This document shows, piece after piece, positions 6,701 to 48,100 of a stretch of DNA of 48,633 nt (position 1 is its first letter; every line of letters begins with the position of its first letter). The notes beneath the pieces are model-generated. The model was given only the letters and a program-made list of their open reading frames with translations. It was not told the DNA's origin and ran no database searches. The translations under genes were made by a program, and so were the position numbers. Source of the DNA: Mustelus asterias (lineage: Eukaryota); contig NC_135823.1 in assembly GCF_964213995.1 (NCBI RefSeq), forward strand, positions 1,612,001 through 1,660,633, given 5' to 3'.

Positions 6701-6755
6701 ATGGCGAAAGGCTCATTAGCTGTGATGCTCATTTTCCAAGTACTACGGTTTCACT
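6701..6755 (+). pseudogene. Gene A leader exon (MAKGSLAVMLIFQVLRFH)
   Basis: ATG in aagATGg context, hydrophobic 18 codons plus 1 nt, donor T|GTGAGT; phase 1 matches the V acceptor at 7332. Confidence 0.8.
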
Positions 6756-7331: not shown

Positions 7332-7664
7332 TTAGAGAATCCGAGTCCTCTCTGTCTCAAATCCCCTTCACAATGACAGCTGAAGTTGGCCATACGGTGG
7401 AATTGTCCTATTATGAGACTTCTGAAGTGTATTTGGTTTCTTACTGTGCTTGGTACAAACAGCGTTTGGGTGAAGCCCCGATACGAATAAACGCTGCATC
7501 TTGTATTGGGGCCGACTGCAAATATATTTCTGAAAAAGGCAACCCAGCAAATGCATTGATTCTGAGAATTCGCAATGTCCAGACGAATGACTCGGGTTCA
7601 TACTACTGTTTCGATCTTGCTGGGGCAGCACCGTTCCGGAATGGACACACACTCATGGTTGGAG
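7332..7664 (+). pseudogene. Gene A germline-joined V-J exon
   Basis: ctttctag| acceptor; SLSQ...VGHTVELSY...WYKQRLGEAP...LRIRNVQTNDSGSYYC...PFRNGHTLMV; donor GAG|GTAAGA. V-set motifs and a J-like G strand lie in one exon. Confidence 0.92.
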
Positions 7665-7752: not shown

Positions 7753-8081
7753 ACAGTTCCACCACGAAGACGGCTGTGCTGGTATTTATCCCTCCGGGTG
7801 AGCTGGATTTGAATGATACCGTGCCCTTTGTGTGTTTGGTCAGTGGAGTTTCTTCCAACCAGATTGCTATTTTCTGGAATATTTCCGTCCAGGTCATGAG
7901 GGATCGAGTGATCCCGGGATAATGGAAGAAGACGGGACCTACAGCATCAGAACTCATGTCATGGTGTCGGCGGACATTTGGAGAAGCGGCGCTGTCTGTG
8001 CTTGCATTGTTCAACTGGGAATTCCAGGGAAATACTGGACAAAGCGTGTGTCGTTCTCCAAAGCAGAAGAGACTGGAACAA
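7753..8081 (+). pseudogene. Gene A C1-set exon (frameshifted near 7896)
   Basis: ctgtccag| acceptor; VLVFIPP...VPFVCLVSG...IFWNIS, then after a 1-nt shift GIMEEDGTYSIRTHVMVSADIWRSGAVCACIVQ; donor A|GTGAGT. The V-C intron is 88 bp. Confidence 0.92.
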
Positions 8082-9659
8082 GTGAGTTGTTAATTTCCAC
8101 AATGGTGGTTTGAATTCAACTCCTAATCAATTGGGACAATGCACCAGATACTATGACACTGAAGACTCTGAATTGACTGGTAGGAGCCTCCAATTTAAAC
8201 TACGTTACCCCTATAACTTGACCGAGGGGAATTTCACAGTAACTTCATTGCAGTTTTAATGTAAGCCGTCTTGTGACTCTAAATAATAAACTTCAAACTT
8301 TAAACATTTCCCCTTCAAGTCACAATGTGGGCCGTACGGTGGCACAGAGTTTAGCACTGCTGCCTCACAGCGCCATGTACCATAGCTCAATTCCAGGCTT
8401 GGGTTACTATCAGTGCAGAGTCTGCACGTTCTCCCCGACTCTGCGTGGGTTTCCTCCGGGTGCTCCGGCTTCCTCCAGCAGTCCGAAAAACGTGTTGTCC
8501 AGATGCATTTGTTATTCTAATTTGTACTACAGTGTACCTGAACAGGCGCTGGAGTGTGACGTTTAGGGGATTTTCACATTAATTCCATTGCTGTGTTAAT
8601 CTAAGCCTACTTGTTATACCACTCAATAAACTTAAGCTCCTCTGTTTTCCCTGTTGAAAGTTACTATTGAATATGCTTGGACCGCCTTTTTCAGACAATG
8701 GATTTTGGAATTGAATTGGGGTAAGTCCTTCCGTGGATGCACTTTGCGTTCAGAAAACAAACAAGAGGTTTTTATTCTGAGGCATGAGCTCAATTTCCCA
8801 GAATCTCACTTCACAATCCTTAGTTTCCATGTGGTAACTGTTTAATTTTTAATTACTAATACCTGCAATCCAATCTCAGGAGCTAAAGCTTCACAGTAGT
8901 TGGATTTTAGATTATTTTACGCTGTTTGATCCAGCGATCTGGACCACGTCTGCAAGGTCAATGGAAGCAAATATAACAATACATTTCACAACTGGAATTG
9001 CATGTGGACTCGGCGGTGAGAAATGTGCAGTGTTGTGAGGGAAAAATAGGCATAGTACCACTATTTCAATAGATCTTTCAAAGACACAGCGAGGACGCTG
9101 TGGGCCTGTATGATTATATGATTCAGTTTTCAAATGAGTGTTGGCGTGATGCTTTTATCATGCAACCTGACACACTATGAATGTGGAACTATCCTGTCAG
9201 GGCTGTCTGATTCTTGATCCCTACTCGCAAGAATAATGCAGTTCATACCACCCTGTTCATTCACGGGTTGCTAGCAATTCCATATGTTGTTTATTTTTAT
9301 TTCACTCCCGAGTTTAAGGTTGCCACTTTTCAACTGTTTTAAAATATATTCGTGTGGCACAGGGGTCGCTGGCGACGCCAGCCTTTATTTCCCATTCTTA
9401 GCTGCTTTTGAGAAGATGGTGGTGAGTTGCATTCTTAAAACTCTCCAGTCCATGTCCTGTGGGGTGACCTGCAGAGCTGTTCGGGAGGAAATTCTAGAAT
9501 CTTTACCGAGCGACTGCGAAGGAATGGCCGATATATTTCCAAGTAAGTATACTGAGTGGCTAGGGGGGGAACTTGCAGGTGGCTGTGCTCCCAGGTATCT
9601 GCTGACCTTGTCCTTCTAGATGTAATGATCGTCGGTTTGGAAGGTGCTGTCACCACGGC

Positions 9660-12600
9660 ACCGTGGTACAGGGAACCGTTCAAGTAGGGGGAGAAAAAAG
9701 AAATGTAGTCCTAATTGAGGATAGTATTGTTAGGGACATGGACACTGATCTCTGTGACCAGGATCGAGAAACCTGAAGGTTGTGTTGCCTGCCTGGTGCT
9801 CGGGTTCGCGATACCTCATCTGGGCTGCAGAGGAACTTGGAGTGGGAGGGCAAAGACCCCAGTTGTCGTGGTCCATTGAGTTACCAATGACATAGGTAAG
9901 AACAAGGACAACGTTTCTGCTTAGGGAGCATGAACATCTAGGAGCTAAACTAAAAGCAGAACCAAAAAGTTAATAATCTCTGGATTACTACCTGAGCCAC
10001 AAACTAATTGGCACAGGGTCAATAAGATTAAGGAGGTAAATGCGTGGCTCAAAGATTGGACGGGAAAGAATGGGTTTGAATTCATGGGATATAAACACCA
10101 GTATTGGGGAAGAGGGTACCTGTTCCGATGGCATTGTCTTCATCTGAATTGTGCTGGGACGAGATTCCTGGCGATTCGTATAACTAGGACTGAAGATAGG
10201 GCTTTAAACTAAATGGAACGGGAGGATGGTTCAGATGTATAGAGAATTAAAAAATCGAAGTTAAAGGACAGGATGGAAGGGCAGGTTAATGGAGCTGAGG
10301 GCTCAGGAGAGGTTAGTAAACTTTCCAGACCACGTAAAGAACAAAGAGTATAGAAAGTGGCAGGAATCTACTCACAGGCAGAGCAAGAAAGGTGGCAAGT
10401 ACGCGAAGGGAGGTGACCAATGCAGGACTGAGGGTCGTGTACCTAAATCCGTGCAGTATACGAAACATGGTAAATGAGCTTGTTGCACACATTGAAATTG
10501 GCTGGCACGATGTTGTGGGCATCACAGAGGCGTGGCTGCAAGGGGATCAGGGCTGGGATCTAAATATCCAAGGATATGTGTCCTAATCAAAGATCAGGAG
10601 GATGGGCAAAGTGTGCTGGGTTGCATTGTTTGTAAGGAATGAAGTTAAATCTATAGCAAGAAGTGACATACTGCTGTACTTCTATACTTCTATAAGGTAT
10701 CCCAAGGGCGGCACGGTAGCACAGTGGTTAGCACTGCTGCTTCACCGCTCCAGGGACCTGGGTTCGATTGCCGGCTTGGGTCACTGTCTGTGTGGAGTTT
10801 GCACATTCTCCTCGTGTCTGCGTGGATTTCCTGCGGGTGCTCCGGTTTCCTCCCACAGTCTAAGAATGTGTGGGTTAGGTTGATTGTTCATGCTAAAATT
10901 GACCTTTGTGTCCTGGGATGCGTAGGTTAGACGGATTAGTGGGTAAATATGTAGGGATATGGGGGTAGGGCCTGGGTGGGATTGTGGTCTTTGCAGACGC
11001 GATGAGCCGAATGGCCTCTTTCTGTGCTGTAGGGTTTCTAAGATTTCTAAGAAGAGCATCAGAAAGCATAAATTCTGAGGGGATAGAGTTGAGGAATCGC
11101 AAAGGTAAAAATTCCCTCATGGGAGTTATGTACAGGTCCACTAGCAGTAGTCAGGATTTGGGGCAGAAAGTAATTCAGGCCATAGAAAAGGCATATAATA
11201 ATGGCAATATTACACTAATCATGAGGGACTTCAATATGCAGGTGGACTGGGAAAATCGGGCAAGTAGTGGATCACAAGAAAATGAATTTGTGAAATGTCT
11301 GAGAGATTTTGTTTGGAGCAGCTTGTGACAGAGCCTACTAGGGGACAGGCAATTCTAGATTTGGTGATACGTAATGAGGCATATTTGATTAGGGAACTTA
11401 CGGTAAAGGAAACCTTAGGGAGCAGTGACCACAATATGATAGATTTTACCCTGCAGTTTGAGCGAGATAAGCTGGAGTCACATGTAACGGTATTGCAATT
11501 AAATAAAGGTAACTAAAAGCACATAAATGAGGAATGGCGAGAGTAGTTTGGAAAGGGAGCCCAGCAGGGAAGACAGTGGAATTGCTATGGCAAGAGTTTT
11601 TGAGAGTTATTCGGGAGTCACAACACAAATTCCTCCCAAGGAAGAGGAAACATGTCTCGGGAGGGCGAGGCATCCATGGCTGCCGAGGGGAGCCAAGGAC
11701 AGCATAAATGCAAAAGAAAAAGCATACGAAGTGGCAAGGATTATTGGAAAGCCAGAGGATTGCGAAGCCTTTAAAAGCGAGTAGAGGACAACTAAGAAAA
11801 GCAATAAAAGGGGGGAAGATGAAATATGAGTGTACGTTATCTAATAATGTAGAAGATGATAGGAAGAGTGATTTTTTTCAATCTATAAAAGGTAAGAGAG
11901 AGGCAAAAAGAGACACTGGACCATTGGAAAATGAGGCTGGAGAAGTAATAATAGGAAACAAAGCAATGGCAGAAGAACTGAATAGTTACTTTGCATCAGT
12001 CTTCACGGTGGAAGGCACCACTGGGATGCCAGAGCTCCAGGAGAGTCAGGGACCACAGGTGAGTGTAGTGATCATCACTAAGGTGAAGGTTCTGGGGAAA
12101 CTGAAAGGTGTGAAGGTGGATAAATAGCCTGGACCGGATGGACTATACACCAGGGTTCTAAAGCTGATAGCTGAGGAAATTGTGGAGGCATTAGTGGTGA
12201 CCTTTCAGGAAGCAATGGAGGCATGGAGTTTACCAGAGGATAGGAAAGTGTAATACCGCTGTTTAAGAAGGGAGGCAGGCAGCAGACAGGATATTATAGG
12301 CCGGTTAGCCTGACTTCGGTCATTGGCAAGATTTTAGCGTCCATTATTAAAGATGAGATCGCAGAGTATTTGGAAGTGCATGATAAAGTAAGACTGAGCC
12401 TGCACGGCTTCGTCAAAGGGAGGTCATGTCTAACAAGTCTGTTAGAGTCCTTTGACGAGCTAACAAGGAAGTTAGATCAAGGAGAACCAGTGGACCTGAT
12501 TTGTTTCGATTTCCAGAAGCCCTTTGACAAGGTGCCGCATAGGCGACTGTTAAATAAGTTAAGTGCCCATGGTGATAAGGGAAAGATTCTGGCATGGGCA

Positions 12601-13742
12601 GAGGGTTGGCTGACTGGCAGAAGGCAGAAAGTGGGGATAAAGCGGTATTTTTCAAAATGGCAGCCGGTGACTAGTGGTGTGCCTCAGGAGTCAGTGCTGG
12701 GACCACAACTTTTCACAATACACATTAACGATTTGGAGGAAGGATCTGAAGTCACTGTTGCTAAGTTTGCAGATCATACAAAGTTATGTAGAGGGACAGG
12801 TAATATTGAGGATGCAGGGGGACTGCAGAAGGACTTGGACAGGTTAGGAGAGTGGGCAAAGAAGTTGCAGATGTATTACAATGTGGAAAAGTGTGAGGTT
12901 ATGCACTTTGGAAGGAGGAATGGATGCATAGACTATTTCCTAAATGGGAAAATGCTTATGAAATCAGAAACAGAATGGGACTTGGGAGTCATTGTTCAAG
13001 ACTATCTCGTGTTTAAGTGCAGATTCAATCGGTAGTTAGGAAGGCAAATGCAATGTTAGCATTCATGTCGAGAGGGCTAGAATACAAGAGCAAGGATGTA
13101 CTTCTGAGGATCTATAAGGGTCTGGTCAGAACCCATTTGGAGTATTGTGAGCAGTTTTTGGCCCCATATCAAAGGAAGGATGTGCTGGCCTTGGAAAGGG
13201 TCAAGAGGAGGTTCACAAGTATGATCCCTGGAATGAAGAGCATGTCGTCTGAGGAACGGTTGAGGACTCTGGTTCTGTACTCATTGGAGTTTAGAAGGAT
13301 GACGGGGTGGGTGGCGGGGTGTGGGGGGAGGGGGATCTTATTGAAACTTACTGGATACTGCGAGGCCTGGAAAGAGTGGCCGTGGAGAGGAAGTTTCTAG
13401 TAGGAAAAACTGGAACCAGAGAGCACAACTTCAGGCTAATGGGCCATCCTTTAAAACAGAGATGAGCAGCAATTTCTTCAGCTGGAGAGTGGCGAATCTC
13501 TGGAACTCTTTGCCGAAGAATGCTGTGGAGGCCAAGTCATTGAGTGTCTTTAAGACAGAGATAGATAGTTTCTTGTTTAATAAGGGGATCAGTGGTTATG
13601 GGGAAAAGGGAGAAGAATGGGGATGAGAAAAATATCAACCATAATTGAATGGCGGAGCAGACACGATGGAACGACACATGGAACGAGAGGCATAATTCTG
13701 CTCCTATGTCTTATGGTCTTATGGTCTTGTGGTCTTATGGTC
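9660..13742 (+). mobile_element. Near full-length degenerate CR1 LINE (ORF1 esterase plus ORF2 APE-RT) in the gene A C1-TM intron
   Basis: APE motifs (VVGITEAW, DFN, SDHN), RT motifs (FDKVPH, SGVPQESVLGP, KFADHTK) and a (TCTTATGG)n tail at about 13708-13742; SINE nested at about 10706-11050. Confidence 0.95.
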
Positions 13743-14174: not shown

Positions 14175-14602
14175 GATGGTGCACTCTGGAACATCCCACT
14201 GTCATAACTGTCCTGGTGATGCCGATTCTACTCTGGATGTTTCTTTCCATTTGAGAACATAAGAACATAAGAAATAGGAGCAGGAGTAAGCCATCTAGCC
14301 ACTCGAGCTTGCCACGCCATTCAATAAGATCATGGCTGATCTGAAGTGAATCAGTTCCACTTACCCGCCTGTTCCCCATAACCCTTAATTCCCCTACCGA
14401 TCAGAAATCCATTTATCCGTGACTTAAACATATTCAACGAGGTCGCCTCCACCACTTCAGTGGGCAGAGAATTCCAGAGATTCACCACCCTCTGAGAGAA
14501 GAAGTTCCTCCTCACCGCTGTCCTAAACTGACCCCCCCTTTATTTTGAGGCTGTGCCCTCGAGTTCTGGTTTCCGTTTGGATTTGGAAGAAAGGCAGAAC
14601 AG
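14175..14602 (+). pseudogene. Gene A transmembrane exon interrupted by a CR1 fragment
   Basis: tttccctctgcag| acceptor; RWCTLEHPTVITVLVMPILLWMFLS(I/V) [insertion 14254-14569] WIWKKGRT; donor CAG|GTAAGG, phase 1 at both ends. Confidence 0.8.
14254..14569 (-). mobile_element. 5'-truncated CR1 3' end inserted in the gene A TM exon
   Basis: (AGAACATA)n tail and CR1 3' UTR; flanked by TTTCCATTTG (14244-14253) and TTTCCGTTTG (14570-14579). Confidence 0.88.
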
Positions 14603-14699
14603 GTAAGGAATAATTTTCAGGAGGGATAATATCACGATTGTTCATCCAATGTGATTCTCCTCGTAGTTTTGTATTGCTCATCGTACTGTCTTCTTTCAG

Positions 14700-14730
14700 A
14701 AGAGCGAGTTAAGGGAGCCTGCAAAGAAAG
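14700..14730 (+). pseudogene. Gene A candidate first cytoplasmic exon (EERVKGACKE)
   Basis: tcttctttcag| phase-1 acceptor 97 bp after the TM donor; possible GC donor AAG|GCGAGT, otherwise the frame reads through to a stop at 14878. Confidence 0.5.
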
Positions 14731-15669
14731 GCGAGTAACTGAGCCATTTATAAAATTCGTCTCAAATACTACCTCTGTATTAAACTGTATTCACCCCAGT
14801 TCAACATCACCACGGATGCAAATGCTATATGTCGAAACCTTCCATAATTTAACGTTGAATATCCTTTCTTTCAAATAATTCTGGCTTTTCGGCCAGGACT
14901 TGCCCGATGTAACACTTGCTTAATTCTTTTTATTTCCTTATCCAGTTTTAGCTTGAGAGAGACAGCACACAGAGGGGGGCGGACAGACGGACAAACAGGT
15001 TGATGGTCACCAAATTGTGGAATTGAACACGGCTCCCTGGCGCTGTGAGGCAGCAGTTCCACGCAGTGCTAAAATGGAAGAAGCTGAGTGTACTTCCAGC
15101 CATCAAATTGTACCTTAATTAATCCCCTGTTAGTCCCATTGAAAAGTATACATGTTGTATTCAAATGTTGGCACCGATTCAATATCATTGAACAAACATA
15201 TAGAATCCTTACAGTGCAGAAGGAGGCCATTCGGCCAATCTTGCCTACAATGCCAACAATTCCAGCCAGGCCCTAACCCCGTAACCCCTGATGCTAACGG
15301 GCAAATGACACATCCTTTTACACTAAGGGGCAATTGCGAATGGCCAATCCAACTTACCTACAAATGTTTGGGCAAATGTTTGGGCATATAATTATACATG
15401 TTTGAGGAACTTCTTCACACAAAGTGTTGTGAATCAGTGGAATTCTCTGCCCAGTGAAGCATTTGAGGCTACCTCATTCAATGTTTTTAAGGCAAGTATA
15501 GATGCATTTTTGAACAGTGAAGTAATTAAGGGTTATGGTGAGCGGGCGGGTAAGTGGAGCTGAGTCCACAAAAACATCAGCCATGATCTGATTGAATGGC
15601 GGAGCAGGCTCGACGGGCCTGATGGCCTACTCCTGCTCCTATGCTCTTACGTTCTTATTTAGAGCCAGT

Positions 15670-15970
15670 ATAGCTTGGCCTGTTCACCTACACTACTCAT
15701 CTTTGGACACTAAGGGACAATTCAGCATGGCCAATCCATCTAAACTGCACATCTTCGGAGACTAAGGGGCAATTCAGCATGATCAATCCACCTAACTTGC
15801 ACATCTTTGGACACTAAGGAGAAGTTCAGCATGGTCAATCCCAATCCACTAAACTGCACATCTTTTCACAGTAAGGTTGAATTCGGCATGGCCAATCCAT
15901 ATAACCTGCTCATATTTTAGCAGTCAGGGGCAATTACCTTGGCTAATTCACCTAATCTGCACATCTTTTG
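15670..15970. repeat. About 52-bp minisatellite from a SINE internal segment (also 27420-27665, 32590-32830, 37230-37550, 46590-46770, 47180-47380)
   Basis: Tandem units of ggacactaaggggcaatttagcatggccaatccacctaacctgcacatcttt. Confidence 0.9.
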
Positions 15971-17049
15971 ACCGTGGGAGGAAACTGGAAAACGCAAAGG
16001 AAACCAGAGCACTCAGAGGAAACCCACGCAGATACAGAGAAGAAGTGAAAGTTCCACACAGAGAGTCACCTAATTGTGGAATTGAACACGGCTCCCTGGC
16101 GCTGTGAGGCAGCAGTTCCACGCAGTGCTAAAATGGAAGAGATTGAGTGTACTTCCAGCAATCAAATTGTTCCATAATTAATCCCCTGTTAGTCCCATTG
16201 AAAAGTATACATGTTGACCATCAATTCTGGCACTGAAATATCTCTAGTGCAATAGACGGCAGGTGGGATAGAAATGCCTTGTCCATCCATTGGTGGATTG
16301 GGATCCATTGAAGTATTATTTGACAGTTGATGTTCTGAGGGACCGGTTATGTATTAGAACAACACTGGTGGATGTGGAGCGGCTTCTTTGGATTGACACC
16401 CATTGAGACGTTAGGCCAATTGATGTATTGGTGCAACAGGGCATCATTTGAGTACTATGTCTCAAATTAATCATAGCTTAGCTGGAACAGGATTAGATTT
16501 ATATTACCATCTTCCACTTTGTTACACAGAATATCGCCAAACATATTGAATGGGAACACAAGACGGTGCAGTTCAGGTAATTGTTTTGCAAATATTTTAA
16601 TACTGTGCAGAACATTTCTGGGTTTTGGAATAAGGTGCAGGATGTCCCATGTTGGATATTTCACGCGGCTGTCAGAGAGCAGCTCACTGTCTGAAGCATC
16701 TAAATGTGAATCAAATCACATTTGTCCACACACTGGCGTCAGAACATGTCCCTCTGCGGCTCTTCCAACTGATTATACAGCGATTGAGTGAATGTTCCGG
16801 TTGGAAAATCTCTGTCAGATGTTTCTGCAGGTTTCCTGAAGTTTCATTTGCAGATTGGCAGCTTTCTGTTATTTTTCACTTTCTTTTTCTCCGCGGAGAA
16901 TCCAGTTGTCCCTCAAGTAACTCCGAGTTTCCTCCAATCTGCTCACACTTGGAAATGAATTAATTGCTGGAATTACGATGTCCAAAGCCATGGTAGTTTT
17001 TTATCGAGAAATCAACAGATGTGTTGTGTTGTAAATACACAGAGAAGGT

Positions 17050-17590
17050 TTGTATGTGTGTGTGTTTGTTTCTGTGTGAGATTCTCTGTCTTCTTTCGAT
17101 ATGAGTCAGTGTGAGATTGTGTATGTGTGTGTGTGTGTGAGAGAGAGAGATTCTTTGTGTATCTCTCTGTATGTGTCGGTGGGAGATTGTGGTTTTGTGT
17201 GTGAGTGAGAGAAATTATTGGTCTGTGCAGCTGTCAATATGTGTCGGTGTGGATTGTGTGTTGTGTGTGTGTGTGTGTGTTTGTGTGAGTGTGTGTACCT
17301 GTGTGCTGTGTGAGTTTTCGTGTGTACCTGAGAGAGAGGGAGAGAGACTGAGAGGGCGAGAGACTGTCTGTTTGAGGGAGAACATGTATGAGTGAACGTG
17401 TGTGTGAATATATGTGTATCTTCCTTTGTGACTCTGTGTGTCTATCTGTGTGTGAGGCAGTGTTTGTAAGAGTGTCTCTGTGTGTGTATGTGTGTGTGTG
17501 TGTGTGAGTCTGTGTTTGCATGTGTAAGTGTGTCTGAGTCTGTGTGCTTGGGAGTGAGAATGATTCTGAGTGCGTGCGTGTGGTGCAGTG
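17050..17590. repeat. Compound (TG)n/(GA)n low-complexity tract
   Basis: Direct inspection. Confidence 0.95.
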
Positions 17591-17640
17591 TTCTGTTCGA
17601 TATTTACTCCCTCAACAAACATCTAAAAATGCAACAATGT

Positions 17641-20600
17641 ATAGAACATAGAACAGAGAACAGTACAGCACAGAACAGGCCCTTCGGCCCACGATGTTGT
17701 GCCGAGCTTTATCTGAAACCAAGATCAAGCTATCCCACTCCCTATCTTCCTGGTGTGCTCCATGTGCTTATCCAATAACCGCTTAAATGTTCCTAAAGTG
17801 TCTGACTCCACTATCACTGCAGGCAGTCCATTCCACACCCCAACCACTCCCTGCGTAAAGAACCTACATCTGATATACTTCCTGTATCTCCCACCACGAA
17901 CCCTATAGTTATGCCCCCTTGTAATAGCTCCATCCACCCGAGGAAATAGTCTTTGAACGTTCACACAATCTATCCCCTTCATCATTTTATAAACCTCTAT
18001 TAAGTCTCCCCTCAGCCTCCTCCGCTCCAGAGAGAACAGCCCTAGCTCCCTCAACCTTTCCTCATAAGACCTACCCTCCAAACCAGGCAGCATCCTGGTC
18101 AATCGCCTCTGCACTCTTTCCAGCGCTTCCACATCCTTCTTATAGTGAGGTGACCAGAACGGCACACAATATTCCAAATGTGGTCGCACCAAAGTCCTGT
18201 AGAGTTGCAGCATAACCCCACGGCTCTTAAACTCCAAGCCCCTGTTAATAAAAGCTAACACACTATAAGCCTTCTTCATAGCTCTATCCACTTGAGTGGC
18301 AACCTTTAGAGATCTGTGGATATGGACCCTAAGATCTCTCTGTTCCTCAACAGTCTTCAGAACCCTACCTTTGACCCTGTAATCCACATTTAAATTAGTC
18401 CTACCAAAATGAATCACCTCACATTTATCAGGGTTAAACACGATTTGCCATTTTTCAGCCCAGCTTTGCATCCTATCTATGTCTCTTTGCAGCCTACAAC
18501 AGCCCTCCACCTCATCCACTACTCCACCAATCTTGGTGGCATCAGCAAATTTACTGATCCACCCTTCAGCCCCCTCCTCTAAGTCATTAATAAAAATCAC
18601 AAAGAGCAGAGGACCAAGCACTGATCCCTGCGGCACTCCGCTAGCAACCTGCCTCCAATCCGAAAATTTTCCATCGACCACCACCCTCTGTCTTCGATCA
18701 GACAGCCAGTTACCTATCCAATCGGCCAACTTTCCCTCTATCCCACACATCCTCATTTTCATCATAAGCCGACCATGGGGGACCTTATCAAACGCCTTAC
18801 TAAATTCCATGTATATGACATCAACTGCCCTACCTTCATCAACACACTTAGTTACCTCCTCAAGAAATTCTATCAAATTTCTGAGGCACGACTTGCCCTT
18901 CACGAATCCGTGCTGAACATCCAGGATTAATCCGCATCTTTCTAAATGGTCGTAAATCCCATCTCTAAGGACCTTTTCCATTAATTTACCAACCACCGAA
19001 GTAAGACTAACAGGTCTATAATTACCAGGGTCATTTCTATTCCCTTTCTTAAACAGAGGAACAACATTCGCCATTCTCCAGTCCTCTGACACCGTCCCCG
19101 TGGACAGCGAGGACCCAAAGATCAAAGCCAAAGGCTCTGCAATCTCATCCCTTGCCGCCCAAAGAATCCGAGGATATATTTAATCAGGCCCAGCGTACTT
19201 ATCGACCTTCGGTTTATTCAAAGCTGCCAGGACATCCTCCCTCCGAACATCTATTTCATCCAACCTATTAGCCTGTAACACCTTCTCTTCCTCAAAAACA
19301 TGGCCCCTCTCTTTGGTGAACACTGAAGAAAAGTATTCATTCATCATCTCGCCTATCTCTACTGACTCCATACACAAGTTCCCACTACTGTCCTTGACCG
19401 GCCCTAACCTCACACTGGTCATTCTTTTATTCCTCACATAAGAGTTAGAAGCCTTGGGGTTTTCCTTGATCCGACCCGCCAGGGACTTCTCGTGTCCCCT
19501 CCTCGCTCTCCTAAGCCCATTTTTCAGCTCATTGTTTGCTCACTTGTAACCCTCAATCGAGCCATCTGAACCTTGTTTCCTCATCCCTACATAAGCTTCA
19601 CTCTTCCTTTTCACAAGACATTCCACCTCTTTCGTGAACCATGGTTCCCTCACTCTGCCATTTCCTCCCTGCCTGACAGGGACATACCTATCCAGTATTT
19701 GTTCCTTGAAAAATTTCCACTTTTCATTAGTTCCTTTCTCTGACAGTTTCTGTTCCCAACTTATGCCCCCTAATTCTTGCCTAATCGTATCATAATTACC
19801 TCTCCCCCAATTGTAAACCTGACCCTGCCGTACGGCCCTATCCCTCTCCATTGCAATAACAAAAGACACCGAATTGTGGTCACTATCTCCAAAGTGCTCT
19901 CCCACAACCAAATCTGACACTTGGCCCGGTTCATTTCCCAGTACCAAATCCAACGTGGCCTCACCTCTTGTCGGCCTATCCACATAGTGCGTCAGGAAAC
20001 CCTCCTGCACACACTGCACAAAAACTGCCCCATCAGAACTATTTGACCTACAAAGGTTCCAATCAATATTTGGAAAGTTAAAGTCCCCCATGACAACTAC
20101 CCTGTGACCCCCACACTTATCCATAATCTGCTTAGCAATTTCTTCCTCCACATCTCTATTACTATCCGGGGGCCTATAGTAAACTCCTAACAACGTGACC
20201 GCTCCTTTCCTATTTCTAACCTCAGCCCATATTACCTCAGTGTGCAGATCCCCCTCGAAGTGCCTTTCCGCAGCCGTTAAAATATCCTTGATTAACAGTG
20301 CCACTCCTCCACCTCTTTTACCAGCTTCCCTACACTTAGTGAAACATGTATACCCCGGAACGTCCAACAACCATTCCTGTCCTTGTTCTACCCACGTCTC
20401 CGTAATGGCCACAACATCGTAGTCCCAAGTACCAATCCACGCCCCAAGTTCATCTACCTTGTTCCGGATGCTCTTTGCATTGAAGTAGACACACTTCAAC
20501 CCACCTTCCTGTCTACCGGTACCCACCCTTGACCCTGATACCTTCCCCAATACCTCAGCACTCTCACTGACTTCTGGACTACAACTCCTTTTCCCACTCC

Positions 20601-20773
20601 CCTGACAAATTAGTTTAAACCCCCCTGAAGAGCCGTAACAAATTTCCCTCCTAGGATATTGGTGCCCCTCTGGTTCAGGTGCACCCCGTCCTGTTTGTAC
20701 AGGTCCCACCTTCCCCAGAATGTGTTCCAGTTATCCACGTATCTGAAACCCTCCCTCCTACAGCATCCCTGCA
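17641..20773 (-). mobile_element. Relatively young CR1/HER1 LINE (end of ORF1 plus ORF2)
   Basis: 389-aa APE-containing and 468-aa RT-containing ORFs (VAITETW, GDFNFP, SDHN, GVPQGSVLGP, FADATK) and an (ATAGAAC)n tail. Confidence 0.97.
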
Positions 20774-22849
20774 ACTAATTTAACTGGGTCATTAATTACA
20801 TTTTCCTTCTTGGATCATACTGTTTCAAAAGGCGCAGCCACATTTACCACCTGAAATTCGATGAATACAATTTCAACAAGTGGCGGTCAACGATGAGGTG
20901 TTCAAACAAGAAAGATACAAGTAAATGCAAACTGGCTGGTGTTTGAAATTAGCTGTTTGGTTTGATGGTGGAAATTTTAATTACCTATAAAAGGGACCTG
21001 AATCTACATGTAAAATGCTGTAACGTACACGGCTACAGATTGGGTGCTGGGCAGCGGGATTGGAATAGACAGCGAGCTTTCGGGCTGGCACAAACATGAT
21101 GGGGAATGGCCTCCTTTTCTGCCATATCTGTCCTGTGGTTCAATGCCGCCAAGACATTTGATTGCGTGTGGCTATTGTGATTACATGTGAGTGATTTGCC
21201 GAAACACAAGGATAATCGGCGGCACGGTGGCACATTGGTTAACACGGCTGCTTCACAGCGCCAGGAACCCGAGTTCAATTCCTTGGATTGGTGTCTCTGT
21301 AGAGTTTGCATGTTCTCACCTTCTCTGTGTGGGTTTCCTCCGGGTGCACCTGTTCCCTCCCAAGTGTAGTTTATACGGTCACTCAGTATCCCAAGTTGTG
21401 TAGGTTAGATGGATTAGCCATGATAAATGTGTTCGGTTACAGGAATAGGGTGGGGGAGAGGGTTTGGGTCAGATTAATTGTCAGATAGTCCATACAGTCT
21501 CGATGGGATGAATGGTCTCAGTCTGCACTGTCGGGATTCTATGATTCTGAAGGGGCTTGAGAGGATAAACGCTGAGACGCTGTTCAGCGAACCTTGAACA
21601 TAACACACGGAGAAACATGTTAATTGGATTGTCTGTTTAACAGAAATCGAATTGACAGACTCAACACCAGTTTTCTGAATAAATGTTAGTGACGCCTTTG
21701 TTAAGCCGCTTTCCAAATTTTGCTTCTCTGTCACGACGTTATTTCAGTCAATTTCAGCTTATAGGCGTTGGGACGTTAAGCATTTTCAAGGCTGAGATGG
21801 ACAGCTTCTTAATCAGTAAGGGAATAAAGGGTTATGGGAATAAGGCGGGAAAGTGGACTTGACGACTGTCATATCAGCACAGTCATGAACTCATTGAATG
21901 GCGGAGCAGACTCGATGGGCTGAATGGCCTACTTCTGCTCCTGTCTCTTATGGCCTTACTATGTTACAGTCTAACTCTTCCATTGGCAATTTCCAATTGA
22001 GATAGAGGCCAATGGATGCAGATTCAATCGCCACTTTCAAAAAGGAATCGGATAACTACTTGTTGCAAAGAACAGAGCTGAGCATTATGCAGAAAGTTAA
22101 AGTGAAGGTTGGTCTTAAGGAGAGGCGATGGTCTAGTTGTCTTCGCGCGAGACTATTAATGCAGATACTCAGCTAATGTTCCAGGGAGCCGAGTTCGAAT
22201 CCCGAAAGGCAGATGGTTGAATTTTTATTCAACGAAACAACATCTGGAATTAATTATCTCCTAATGACCATGAAACCGTTGTCAGGAAAAAATCCATCTG
22301 TTTCACTTCTCTTCTTTCGGGAAGGAAATCTGCCATTCTGAACTGGTCTGGCCGACACGTAACTCCAGATCCACAGCAATGTGATTGACTCTCAACTGCC
22401 TTCTGAACAAGGACAACTCGGAATGGGCGAAGTCCATGTCCCAAAAATGAATTAAAAAATGGATAGCTCTTTCAAAGATCCAACACGGATTCAATGGGCT
22501 GGTTAGGCTCCTTCTAATTTGTGCCATGCTATGATTTTATGTCACGCGTTTGAGGTTGAGGGTAATCTTAACTATATATGGGCCGAAAGGCCTCCCTGAG
22601 CACTGGCGGGCTTCTATGATTCACTATGATGTATCTATGATTTGTGAATATTTCAGAGTGGACCTGTCTCCGCCTCCCTGTTTTTGGCCGCTTTGGAAAA
22701 GAGTTCGAAAAAGAAGGCAGGTCGAAAATGAGAGTTAGAATGATGAATTCTGGAGCAGGCAGGATGACCCGAGAATCCCACAGCATCAATGAAGTAAACA
22801 TGGTTCCAAGGAGTCTCATCTCAAACAGCTGAACTTTCCCCGTGCATTC

Positions 22850-23980
22850 GTCATAGGGAGGTTAGTTAGGAAGGTTCAGTCGCTGGGTATACATGGGGAG
22901 GTAGTAAATTGGATAAGACACTGGCTCAATGGAAGAAGCCAGAGAGTGGTTGTGGAGGATTGCTTCTCTGAGTGGAGGCCTGTGACTAGTGGTGTGCCGC
23001 AGGGATCGGTGTTGGGTCCATTGTTGTTTGTCATCTATATCAATGATCTGGATGATAATGTGGTAAATTGGATCAGCAAGTTTGCTGATGATACAAAGAT
23101 TGGAGGTGTAGTGGACAGTGAGGAAGGTTTTCAAAGCTTGCAGAGGGATTTGGACCAACTAGAAAAATGGGCTCAAAAATGACAAATGGAATTTAACGCA
23201 GACAAGTGTGAGATATTGCACTTTGGAAGGACAAACCAAAGTAGAACGTACAGCGTAAATGGTAGGACTCTGAAGAGTGCAGTTGAACAGAGGGATCTGG
23301 GAAAACAGGTACAGAATTCCCTAAAAGTGACGTCACAGGTGGATAGGGTCGTAAAGAGGGCCTTTGGTAAATTGGCCTTTATAATTCGGAGTATCGAGTA
23401 TAAAAGTTGGAGTGTTATGGTAAGGTTATATAAGGCATTGGTGAGGCCGAATTTGGAGTATTGTGTACAGTTTTGGTCACCTAGTTACAGGAAGGATGTA
23501 AATAAGATTGAAATAGTGCAGAGAAGGTTCACAAGGATGTTGCCGGGACTTGAGAAGCTGAGTTACAGAGAGACATTGAATAGGTTGGGTCTTTATTCCC
23601 TGGAGCGTAGAAGATTGAGGGGAGATTTGATAGAGGTGTATAAGATTTTGATGGGTATAGATAGAGTGAATGCAAGCAGGCTTTTTCCGCTGAGGCTAGG
23701 GGAAAAAAAAAACAGAGGTCATGGGTTATGGGTGAAAGGAGAAAAGTTTCAAGGGAATATTAGGGGGGGCTTCTTCACGCAGAGAGTGGTGGGAGTGTGG
23801 AATGAGCTGCCAGATAAAGTGGTAAATGCATTTAAGAAAAACTTGGACGGGTTCATGGACGAGAGGGGTTTGGAGGGAAATGGTCCAAGTGCAGGTCAGT
23901 GGGACTAGGCATAAAATGGTTCGGCACAGACAAGAAGGGCCAAAAGGCCTGTTTCTGAGCTGTAATTTTCTATGGTTCTA
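22850..23980 (+). mobile_element. 5'-truncated CR1 LINE (RT C-terminal half)
   Basis: SGVPQGSVLGP, KFADDTK, LVRPNLEYC and a TTCTATGG tail. Confidence 0.95.
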
Positions 23981-24414
23981 CCCACCGCCTCGGAAAAGCA
24001 GCCAGTATAATCACGGACCAGATGCACCCTGGACATACTATCTTCCAACTTCTTCTGTCAGGAAAAAAATTACAAAGGTCTGAGGTCATGGACCAACCGA
24101 ATCAAGAACAGCTTATTCACTGCTGCCATCAGACGTTTGAATGGACTTACATCGCATTCAGTTGATCTTTCTCCACAGCCTAGCTATGACTGTAGCATTG
24201 CATTCTGCAGTCTCTCCTTTCCTTCTCTATGAATGGTATGCTTTGTCTGTATAGCGCTCAAGAAGCAATAATTTTCCCTGTATCCTAATACATGTGACAA
24301 TCATAAACCAAGTCAAATAGAATTTTCTGTGTCCTTTATGAATTTTAAAACCTGGATAAAAAAAATAATGAAAAGTCTCCGTGTGGTATAGCCACAATAA
24401 TTCCATTCATTCAC

Positions 24415-24473
24415 CTCTTTATTCTGTTTGTGTTGCCTGGATTCTGTCAGTTCGTCATCACTGTTCGCGGTTC
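24415..24473 (-). pseudogene. Gene B first cytoplasmic exon (GTANSDDELTESRQHKQNKE)
   Basis: ctctttctaacag| phase-1 acceptor 139 bp after the TM donor, open frame, donor GAG|GTGAAT (phase 0). Confidence 0.7.
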
Positions 24474-24612
24474 CTGTTAGAAAGAGTAATTTAAACTGAA
24501 ATTTAAAATGGCTACATTTCACACCGAACCCGCTCAGAAGTGTCAATAACTCAGTGATAAATGAGTGGATTGAGAGCGCCGCGGAGTAACAGCGTCCCAC
24601 AACAATCGCTAC

Positions 24613-24731
24613 CTCTCTGCCGGTTCCTGCAGATCCTTCTTCCGGCCACAAGAACCAATCCTAGAAGGAGAAGCGCCGCGGCCGACAAACCCCCGAAAAC
24701 AGTAAATTACAGGTGGTCGGGAACGGAGAAT
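24613..24731 (-). pseudogene. Gene B transmembrane exon (1-nt frameshift)
   Basis: ttctttttgcag| acceptor; DSPFPTTCNLLF / GGLSAAALLLLGLVLVAG RRICRNRQR; donor GAG|GTAGCG. Confidence 0.82.
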
Positions 24732-28354: not shown

Positions 28355-28653
28355 CTCTCTGAGATGAGACACTTTCAATGAGAATACTTTCAACGGAGTT
28401 GACCTGAACGGCGCAAATACAGTGAGTGCCACTTCGCCAAGTTTCCACCGAGAGGCTGATGCAACTCCTGATGGTGTAGGTCCCGTCTGGCTCCAGCATC
28501 CCCGAATGGGTCTGTGCCTCGGTATCCCGCCCCGGACCGGAAAGGAATCGGGAGACACGCCTCTGACCAAACACAACAATGGGACCCTTTCCATGGCAGG
28601 AAACTCATCCAGGGGCGGGGTGAGGAGGAATATGGTGGGAGAACCCGCTAAAT
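28355..28653 (-). pseudogene. Gene B C1-set exon
   Basis: PTIFLLTPP...VPLLCLVRGVSP, then a deletion removing the C-strand Trp with frameshift, then GMLEPDGTYTIRSCISLSVETWRSGTHCICAVQ; donor GAG|GTAGCT. The V-C intron is 94 bp with a mutated acceptor (ccgg|at). Confidence 0.9.
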
Positions 28654-28747: not shown

Positions 28748-29081
28748 CCGTGATCACTAACTTGGAGCCGTTTCCAAATATTCTGGCCATGTTTTGATAA
28801 TTGAGGATTGCAGAGTAATACATCCCAGATTCATTTTTCTGGGAATCCGCAACGATTAGTGAATAAATGCCCGCTTTTTCAGAAATCTCGCTGGAAAACC
28901 TCCCCTCAGTTCGACTGTTCTGGAACGCTGTGTAAACCAAAGCCATATCGTTTCTCTCCCTCTGTCTGTACCAGTGGAGATAGCTAGTAGCTTGACCCTT
29001 GGACACGAAACCTGAGATGAACAAGACTCCCGGCAGGGAGCGTCTGAACCGGCGGAGACTGGGACAAGGTGGCCTGAGACA
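28748..29081 (-). pseudogene. Gene B germline-joined V-J exon
   Basis: (ct)n-cttacag| acceptor; SQATLSQSPPVQTLPAGSLVHLRFRVQGS / frameshift / ATSYLHWYRQ...GRFS...YSLIVADSQKNESGMYYSA...IFGNGSKLVIT; donor G|GTAAAT. Confidence 0.92.
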
Positions 29082-45170: not shown

Positions 45171-48100
45171 TCTCAAACTATGGATCAAACACTTAGGCTT
45201 AAAGTTCAAATGTTAAAAATCAAAACACATTGTGTAAAAAGTATTTTGAGTAGGAGCTATTCTCTCTGTTATGAAACAAGAAACTAGTTAGTATTTTAAA
45301 GTCATGCATATTAGAGGAACATTTATTCAAATGTCCCAGTTATGATGAGCTGCTTCAGCGAAACAAAGCCCTAATTAGGATCAAGTTTAGAACACAGTTT
45401 CCGTGATACGTATTGCAAAGGTTCAACATGCACCACCCTAACAGAACGAAAACACTCAGAACCTGCCGTTGGATCTATTCATTCATTTTTGGGAGACTCT
45501 CATTAGACAGTTGATTCAATTAGAAAATTGAAACAGCAAATTCAATGCTTCAGCTTCTCTGCAATAGTCTGTAGCATTTATTCCGCCAGGGAATGTTCAA
45601 AAGAATGAGGAGGAACAGAGCAGGAAGATCAGGGCGAGATACATTCATGTGAAGACCCTGGTCGAACGAATTAGTGCCACAACAGGTTCGGAAGTGAACA
45701 GAGAGTGTGCTCCTTCCAGAGTGATTGAAGTGCTCTGCAAAACGTTATGACCTTTAAAGCCAATGAAAATAATCATCAGATCTTGCAGCAGAGAGCGGGG
45801 TTGGTAGCAGACCGAGAGAGAGTGAGGCGTTGGCTGGGGCGACGCTTGTATGGTATGACCTTAAGAAAGACGCCTCGCCCACAGCTCTTTCAGGGAGTGT
45901 GCAAAGCACATCAAGCAGAAATCGCTGATCGAGATTCCGACCACATTACGCTTGAGGCGGAAAGTTGTCCGAGACAGCAGCTCACTGTGGTTTTTCGTTT
46001 TTTTTTTACAGTCGAGGCGCTACAACTGCCTCCAGAGGTCAGAAGCTGAGACACAATGTTAAGCCGCAGAGAGAAGACAGTTGGGCATTCAAGATAAGTT
46101 TAGCTGAACAAAGAACCTGTTTGTTTACAATTCAGCCATATTACAAGATTATTTTCAAAAGACAACTGGTCATTATTTGCAAGCATTCCTAGGGTTGAGT
46201 ACAATTCGCAGAAACCTCCTTTGATTCACAACAGACGCATTCATTTCATCTGCCGCTCAGAGGAACCGCAGTTTGTACTGTCTATACTCAAGCAGCAACT
46301 CAATGAGACTTTCGACACAATTTGAACGCAATCCATACAATATTTTCACTTCTCTTTATTAGGCAGCTTGCATGAGGAATCATGTGTAAACTGTTTACAC
46401 AATGAATTAGATTGAACACAATTACATTACGGCATGCTGGCACAGTAGTTAGCAGTGCTGCATCACAGCGCCAGGGACCCGGCTTCAATTCCAGCCTTGG
46501 GTGACTTTCTGTGTGGAGTTTGCACGTTCCCCCGTGTCTGCGTGGGTTTCCTCTGCGTGCTCCAGTTTCCTCCCTCAGTCCGGAGGTGTGCAGGCTCGGT
46601 GGATTGGCCATGCTAAATTGTCCCTGAGTGTCCAAATATGTGCAAGTTAGGTGCAATGGCCATGGTATATTGCCCCGTTTTTTTCAAAGACGTGCAGGTT
46701 AGTTGGATTGGCCATGCTAAATTGCCCCATATTGTCCAAAGATGTGTAGGTTAGGTGGATTCGCCATGGTAAATCGACGCAATTATGGGGAAAAGGTGAG
46801 GTGATGTGGACCTGGGTAAAATGTTGCACTGCACTGCAGGAATTCTATGATTATATTCGGAATTCCCGACAGTTCACAGACTGATACTGAGAGTTCTTGC
46901 AGCAGACGACAGTGGCAGATCAACAGGAGCACCAAAATTTCAAAGTGCCCCTCGAAGCTGCAGAGCATTCTGACTTGGAAATATATCACTGTTCCTTCAC
47001 TCCCTCCCTCACATGAACTGTGAGCGAACACAATTTGTACTGCAGGGGCTAAAAGGGCGGGTCACCATAGAATCATTAGAGCAGAAGCATGTCATTCGGC
47101 CCATTGTGTCTGCACCGACCACAATTCCACGCAGGCCCTATCCCCATGACTCCATGCATTTACCACAGCTAGTTCCTCTGACACTAAGGAGCAATTTAGC
47201 ACGGCAAATTCACCTAACCAGCACATCTTTGGACACTGAGGGGCAATTTAATTTGGCCAATCTACCCAACCCGCACATCTTTGGACACTAAGGGGCAATT
47301 TAGCACGGCCAATCCACGTAACCTGCCCATCTTTGGACACTAAGGGGCAATTTAACATGATCAATTTACCGCACCTGCAAATCATAGAATCATAGAATAC
47401 CTACCGTGCAGAAGAAGGCCATTCGGCCCATCGAGTCTGCATCAAACACAATCCCACCCAATCCCTACCCCGGAACCCCATGCATTTACCCCACCTAGTC
47501 CCCCTGACACAAAGGGGAAATTTAGCGTGGCCAGTCCCCCTAACCTGCCCATCTTTGGACTGTGTGAGGAAACCAGAGCACCAGGAGGAAACCCACGCAG
47601 ACACGGGGAGAACGTGCACACTCCACACAGACGGTGACCCAAGCCGGGAATTGAAACCGGGTCCCTGGCACTGTGAGGCAGCACTGCTAACCACTGTGTC
47701 ACTGTGCCCCCTCCCCCCACCCTCCCCCCGACGATCTTTGGATATCATAATCTTCGAAAGATCAATACACTCGGTCCTTGCCAAGGAAGTATACATCCCG
47801 CGAATGATTTGAAATTTGGCTGAAATAGTGCACATATCACTATTAAATTAGTGTACTGTAACACTCTCTGAAGACATGCTGCCTATTCATCGCTGTGACG
47901 CACAGCCGATCACCACACTGTGTCAAATGAATGTGGAATTCACCAGCACACCGAATCAAAATGGTGTAACTTTCCATTGCACAGCTCGTCATAATTTCCA
48001 CTGTATCTGAAAGCGGCGTAACTCTCTGGGACTCAGCTCAGGTCAACCAGCGGCCATTAACCCTACAGAAACAAACTGGTCACGTAACATGGAGAAATAG

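Follow-up and report, generated by a model that had tools for sequence, protein, structure and literature searches.

Non-rearranging membrane genes that encode a VJ domain, with or without a C1 domain, and a tail resembling an immunoreceptor tyrosine-based inhibitory or switch motif (ITIM/ITSM) have reportedly been described as PRARP1/PRARP2 by Fu et al. in 2019 (J Immunol 202:1992) and as VJC1 by Ohta et al. in 2019. They are the closest known system to the genes considered here, two neighboring genes termed A and B in a 48,633-nt stretch of the forward strand of Mustelus asterias (GCF_964213995.1, contig NC_135823.1, here C23, positions 1612001-1660633), called the window throughout. The A/B genes fit each testable feature: V and J occupy one germline exon without a recombination signal sequence (RSS), a single C1 domain is followed by a transmembrane (TM) segment, two gene types are linked, and intact relatives carry an ITIM/ITSM-like motif. 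Unlike PRARP/VJC1, they form a family of about 50 genes with variation focused on the complementarity-determining regions (CDRs), include forms with a TM Arg, and lie off the contig bearing the major histocompatibility complex (MHC); no protein named PRARP was among the homologs returned. PMC10751288 places PRARP among the MHC VJ genes. Judged from their sequences, intact A and B chains probably, if with some reserve, form disulfide-linked heterodimers that would inhibit by way of a single Tyr motif on either tail.

Other receptors share parts of this architecture. Like alpha-beta and gamma-delta T-cell receptors (TCRs), A and B follow a two-chain plan of V, C1, stalk Cys, and TM, with a J-like G strand and V-V packing residues; unlike TCRs, they have neither RSS nor rearrangement, most chains lack a charged TM, and the tails are long and bear a Tyr motif. 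LILR, CHIR, and SIRP are paired inhibitory and activating families, in which members with a neutral TM and a Tyr motif coexist with TM-Arg members devoid of the motif. The A/B genes are likewise a clustered birth-and-death family with both kinds of member, but their domains are of the antigen-receptor VJ-C1 type and come as two complementary chain types. Germline-joined immunoglobulin (Ig) light chains (IgL) differ in that the A/B C1 domains fall outside IgL in the tree and TM exons are present. According to PMC12227049, UrIg is a secreted, MHC-linked homodimer with three C1 domains and UrIg2 a homodimer with 9-11 C1 domains. Both resemble A/B as elasmobranch, non-rearranging single-exon VJ plus C1 genes with a split leader and a disulfide-linked dimer (predicted for A/B), whereas A/B have one C1 domain, a TM, and Tyr tails rather than VJ plus at least three C1 domains. 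Lack of MHC linkage sets the A/B cluster apart from NKp30 and UrIg alike. No published account of the shark A/B cluster was found in the literature searched, which covers J Immunol poorly and does not establish absence from print; the loci may be listed in the supplements of PMC12227049 and PMC10751288.

The family was delineated by genome searches followed by local annotation of 1.66 Mb from the initial 1.74 Mb of C23, of its 3.2-3.3 Mb region, and of parts of contigs C73 and C3499; genes are named by chain and kilobase position on C23 (e.g., A1429, B1402). Counting genes that have a V or a C1 exon, and leaving out a C3499 near-duplicate and TM-only relics, the examined DNA contains 25 A and 24 B. 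V and C1 frames are both open in 14 of the A and 10 of the B genes, a tally of frames for which splice sites were examined in part of the genes only. V and J share one germline exon that ends in a J-like strand, and none of eight RSS-like pattern matches lies within a V exon. Among related open copies, variable columns concentrate in the CDR-like loops, which hold 13 of 36 such columns in A (20/109 columns, p=0.001) and 15 of 39 in B (28/110 columns, p=0.02). The A CDR3 shows a pN (nonsynonymous) of 0.235 and a pS (synonymous) of 0.319, versus 0.013 and 0.027 in the framework; since both are raised, the loop change is as compatible with gene conversion as with selection. In B, the CDR1 and CDR2 ratios exceed 1, from 9 codons each. 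The A/B family is thus a germline repertoire and not a single invariant receptor. The preliminary description had also contrasted very different V domains with related C1 domains; between intact A and B copies, V domains share 29.8% identity on average (143 pairs, 21-40%) and C1 domains 38.1% (42 pairs, 30-45%), a contrast of the expected direction but modest. Separately, A V exons (e.g., L020:7654-7980) have a conserved additional Cys pair in the C'-C'' region, and both chain types have C-x-C rather than Y-x-C in the F strand of C1. The C23:50-470 kb region is made up of four tandem units that are recent, measure about 105-115 kb, and hold a single A and a single B apiece; their A CDR3-like loops differ at silent and replacement sites alike, suggesting gene conversion.

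Both chain types are found across sharks and rays in profile searches with intact copies, while a search with the decayed window V alone returned no homologs. From the profile matches, 21 A and 22 B TM-bearing protein models were picked and aligned, and every one retains the stalk Cys. So do the genomic TM exons of A (25/25) and most of those of B (19/23), each of the four exceptions belonging to a gene whose V or C1 is broken; retention on this scale argues that the Cys is not there by chance. Several annotated isoforms (P0009, P0016, P0018, P0077, P0200) omit the stalk/TM exon and retain the tail, possibly soluble forms or gene-model artefacts. Seven of the eight species having both types carry A and B on a scaffold of common length, a measure of linkage that says nothing of distance or orientation: Cetorhinus, Heterodontus, Rhincodon, Stegostoma, two Scyliorhinus, and Mobula birostris (consecutive accessions, the neighbors XP_072139900 and XP_072139901). 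Scyliorhinus canicula has an additional B on another scaffold, and in many other sharks and rays the family sits on 8-22 Mb scaffolds. All 140 MHC-I matches (150/156 candidates scored) lie on contig C8, so the A/B cluster on C23 is not MHC-linked. A C1 tree built from 65 rows and few columns unites A and B in a clade (99/95) that excludes Ig C1 domains and divides into A and B sides; it also includes one unassigned protein, P0173. Unnamed V-C1 proteins of sturgeon and lungfish join the A side (95/88), and the A/B split therefore looks older than sharks.

Matched geometry favors pairing, as do the invariant stalk Cys, the scaffold linkage, the common C1 clade, and the fact that several neighboring A and B genes are sisters in the A and B trees alike (775/703 with 1619/1640, 1304/1334 with 1711/1675, and 3268/3229 with the C73 pair). 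The stalk Cys lies 25-32 residues (A) or 20-30 residues (B) past the F-strand Cys of C1, a similar spacing by which the two stalk registers match. Nine residues past the V-domain Trp, 19/21 A proteins carry Pro and 22/22 B proteins Leu, Met, or Ile, and the equivalent residue in PDB alignments is Pro in light-chain and Leu in heavy-chain V domains (VL, VH). Together, this complementarity and the matched registers suggest A/B packing as in an antigen-binding fragment (Fab) or a TCR. Monomer fold predictions contribute a generic V-C1 fold only (predicted local distance difference test, pLDDT, 57 for A, weak; 73 for B, fair). In such a heterodimer, V-V and C1-C1 contacts would follow those of Fab or TCR with the A Pro against the B Leu/Met, the stalk cysteines would link the A chain to the B chain, and the paired V loops would bind ligand, with A x B combinations yielding a small germline repertoire. 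The B tail ends in T/S/I/D-x-Y-A-x-L in 24/25 proteins and the A tail in P/I/S-x-Y-A/T-S-L in 18/26, both of the xxYxxL type, and a spliced joint into the B Tyr-motif exon occurs in both read runs (2/2; their RNA nature is presumed). In ITIM biology, tandem Tyr motifs are a site for SHP-type phosphatases. Two single-Tyr tails might jointly form such a tandem site, in which case CD3 would not be needed.

A minority of A chains departs from this plan. Charged TM residues are absent from all 22 B proteins, and the A proteins have one outer Arg only, found in 4/21 proteins and 4/25 genomic A TM exons, 6-9 residues past the Cys. The Tyr motif is missing from 4/4 TM-Arg A proteins versus 2/17 of the others. 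Among the genomic TM-Arg genes, A902 has a stop at the Tyr, A1143 lacks both acceptor and Tyr, and the broken A963 retains the Tyr. TM-Arg, motif-less A chains are likely activating forms, to judge by this pattern, and may recruit an FcR-gamma-type adaptor for activation. The earlier claim that adaptor pairing is unlikely is borne out for most chains, which have a neutral TM, but cannot be extended to the family as a whole because TM-Arg A forms exist.

A number of observations weigh against A-B pairing. PRARP is said to form disulfide-linked homodimers as well as heterodimers, and the stalk Cys is equally compatible with homodimers. In the A J motif, Leu replaces the interface Phe in 19/21 proteins. 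With its Pro at -2, PLYASL, the A motif of sharks, is not a canonical ITIM; the B motif TLYARL reads as an ITIM/ITSM hybrid; and the motif is missing in some A proteins, possibly through gene-model errors. Carcharodon has its A and B records on separate scaffolds. Neighbor pairs are discordant between the A and B trees for 1281/1245 and for 1429/1402 versus 1487/1452. Partners also decay alone: B1402 and B1452 are open while A1429 and A1487 next to them are broken, and A464, A578, A1304, and A1711 are open next to dead B genes. Pair orientation is inconsistent across the genome, the nearest A/B pairs being convergent in eight cases, tandem in eight, and divergent in one. The preliminary description expected linked inverted pairs in other sharks and held unlinked homologs, an unconserved stalk Cys, or independent loss against its proposal: linkage and the Cys are conserved, but inversion is no rule in this genome, and independent loss is frequent.

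Some of these facts underlie the leading alternative, in which A and B are linked but separate receptors, each a disulfide-bonded homodimer or a monomer, co-duplicated as neighbors. Independent decay, variable orientation, and a Tyr motif of its own on each chain all suit it, as does the homodimeric state of other shark non-rearranging VJ-C1 proteins, UrIg among them (PMC12227049). It leaves unexplained why the Pro versus Leu/Met/Ile complementarity is conserved in sharks and rays, why both types share a scaffold in seven of eight species, and why copy numbers are alike (25 vs. 24); separate receptors are somewhat unlikely, if a serious contender.

Far less probable is that A and B are relics of germline-joined Ig light chains or TCRs that acquired TM exons. 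Light chains and TCR chains top the list of their PDB matches, automated annotation calls them 'kappa light chain-like', and only ~21 kb separates gene A from an IgL cluster that bears an RSS. The C1 tree, however, whose IgL sampling comprises two IgL C1 domains of this genome and one lizard protein, sets A and B apart from both tested IgL C1 and from IgH (heavy-chain) C1 domains; the sturgeon and lungfish grouping puts the A/B split apparently before sharks; and a TCR-type charged TM is absent. The light-chain cluster itself, of the rearranging type, occupies C23:~1,595,900-1,598,500 (minus strand), ~14 kb left of the window, and has V with a 12-spacer RSS, a degenerate J, and C; it is probably decayed. 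Elsewhere, near-identical C1-set exons are densely arrayed at C8:50.1-51.1 Mb and C13:60.0-61.4 Mb, and one of the C13 copies is an Ig light chain whose V and J share a frame.

The preliminary description's own reading of A and B as one invariant receptor is wrong given some 50 genes, with V and C1 open in 14 A and 10 B, and excess variable columns in the CDR-like loops, and what can be said for it, a single divergent basal A/B pair at C23:3.23-3.27 Mb, closely matched by one on C73, and perhaps few copies in some species, leaves it very improbable. That C73 pair, at 1.887 Mb and 4.123 Mb, is spread over 2.2 Mb of a 7.8-Mb contig and is the closest relative of the C23:3.23-3.27 Mb pair.

The window copies that led to the family are both pseudogenes, with the following features in window coordinates:

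6701..6755, plus strand: gene A leader exon, a split leader with a phase-1 donor
7332..7664, plus strand: gene A VJ domain in one exon, open frame (Pfam V-set E=1.8e-7)
7753..8081, plus strand: gene A C1 exon, frameshifted
14175..14602, plus strand: gene A stalk-Cys/TM exon, reading (R)WCTL, split by a repeat insertion
14700..14730, plus strand: gene A cytoplasmic exon 1, with a GC donor (GT in most paralogs)
14946..14998, plus strand: gene A cytoplasmic exon 2, agreeing with the tails of annotated homologs
16530..16576, plus strand: gene A cytoplasmic exon 3, with an in-frame stop
22657..22731, plus strand: gene A last exon, the family Tyr motif (P-L/V/I-Y-A-S-L) lacking its Tyr
22850..23977, plus strand: truncated LINE fragment, lying where the window copy has lost ~53 kb that the sister pair keeps
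24415..24473, minus strand: gene B cytoplasmic exon 1, the sole cytoplasmic exon remaining in the window
24613..24731, minus strand: gene B stalk-Cys/TM exon, reading DSPFPTTCNL, with a frameshift right after the Cys
28355..28647, minus strand: gene B C1 exon, thrown out of frame by a deletion
28748..29081, minus strand: gene B VJ domain in one exon with an FGNG J motif, frameshifted (Pfam V-set E=6.4e-6)

As first described, both TM exons place a Cys just outside the membrane, both TM cores lack Lys, Arg, and Asp, the tails continue into cytoplasmic exons (four in A, one in B), and both genes have decayed. The gene A VJ has Tyr in place of the B-strand (first V) Cys, a change shared with the sister copy at C23:775k, and its last exon reads SGPVSASL where that copy has SGPVYASL. 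The repeat in the TM exon spans ~325 nt (about 14254-14579), is flanked by a target-site-like duplication, and has 194 matches in the DNA examined. The C1 fragments of both genes score under the Pfam cut-off, and no gene B leader exon was found within the window. The signaling tails ascribed to the pair thus hold for intact relatives, with one Tyr motif each, but are dead in both window copies.

The window pair duplicates the one at C23:700-780 kb, with which it groups as sister in both trees (775/703 with 1619/1640). Window positions 22849 and 23978 correspond to 762387 and 708990 in that pair, so ~53 kb is missing, and the last, Tyr-motif exon of B, absent here, fell within the deleted part. 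The tail-to-tail closeness of A and B is therefore secondary: the pair does converge, as originally noted, but its adjacency stems from the deletion. Two minus-strand pieces, at 16829-16740 (SLYNQL) and ~20850, were rejected as B tail exons because they accompany A genes without a B neighbor, their frames are unconserved, and the true B last exon differs. A candidate exon at ~8695-8720 was dropped, being absent from annotated homologs. CR1/LINE-type elements that retain long open frames occupy gene A introns at 11060-13690 (plus) and 17646-20730 (minus), those of the latter measuring 484 and 396 aa. A degraded A-type TM-exon relic lies at ~45377-45481 (minus), with similar relics at C23:101k, 154k, 216k, 267k, 368k, 685k, and 1717k and at C73:1891k; last-exon relics that match them occur elsewhere, and such remains mark older dead A genes. 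The window copy, being dead, has value as a pointer to the family only.

If A and B do pair, they would combine a two-chain V-C1 plan, CDR-focused diversity, and on/off signaling without rearrangement or CD3, with a bearing on the origin of Ig and TCR. A bolder and rather doubtful proposal is that in sharks ~14 A and ~10 B germline VJ-C1 chains, varied in their CDR-like loops, pair freely as TCR-shaped heterodimers, inhibitory with two Tyr tails and activating with a TM-Arg A. Intact annotated genes in sharks and rays make the A/B question directly testable, and a free-pairing germline repertoire, if true, would be a living model of a two-chain receptor before RAG and CD3.

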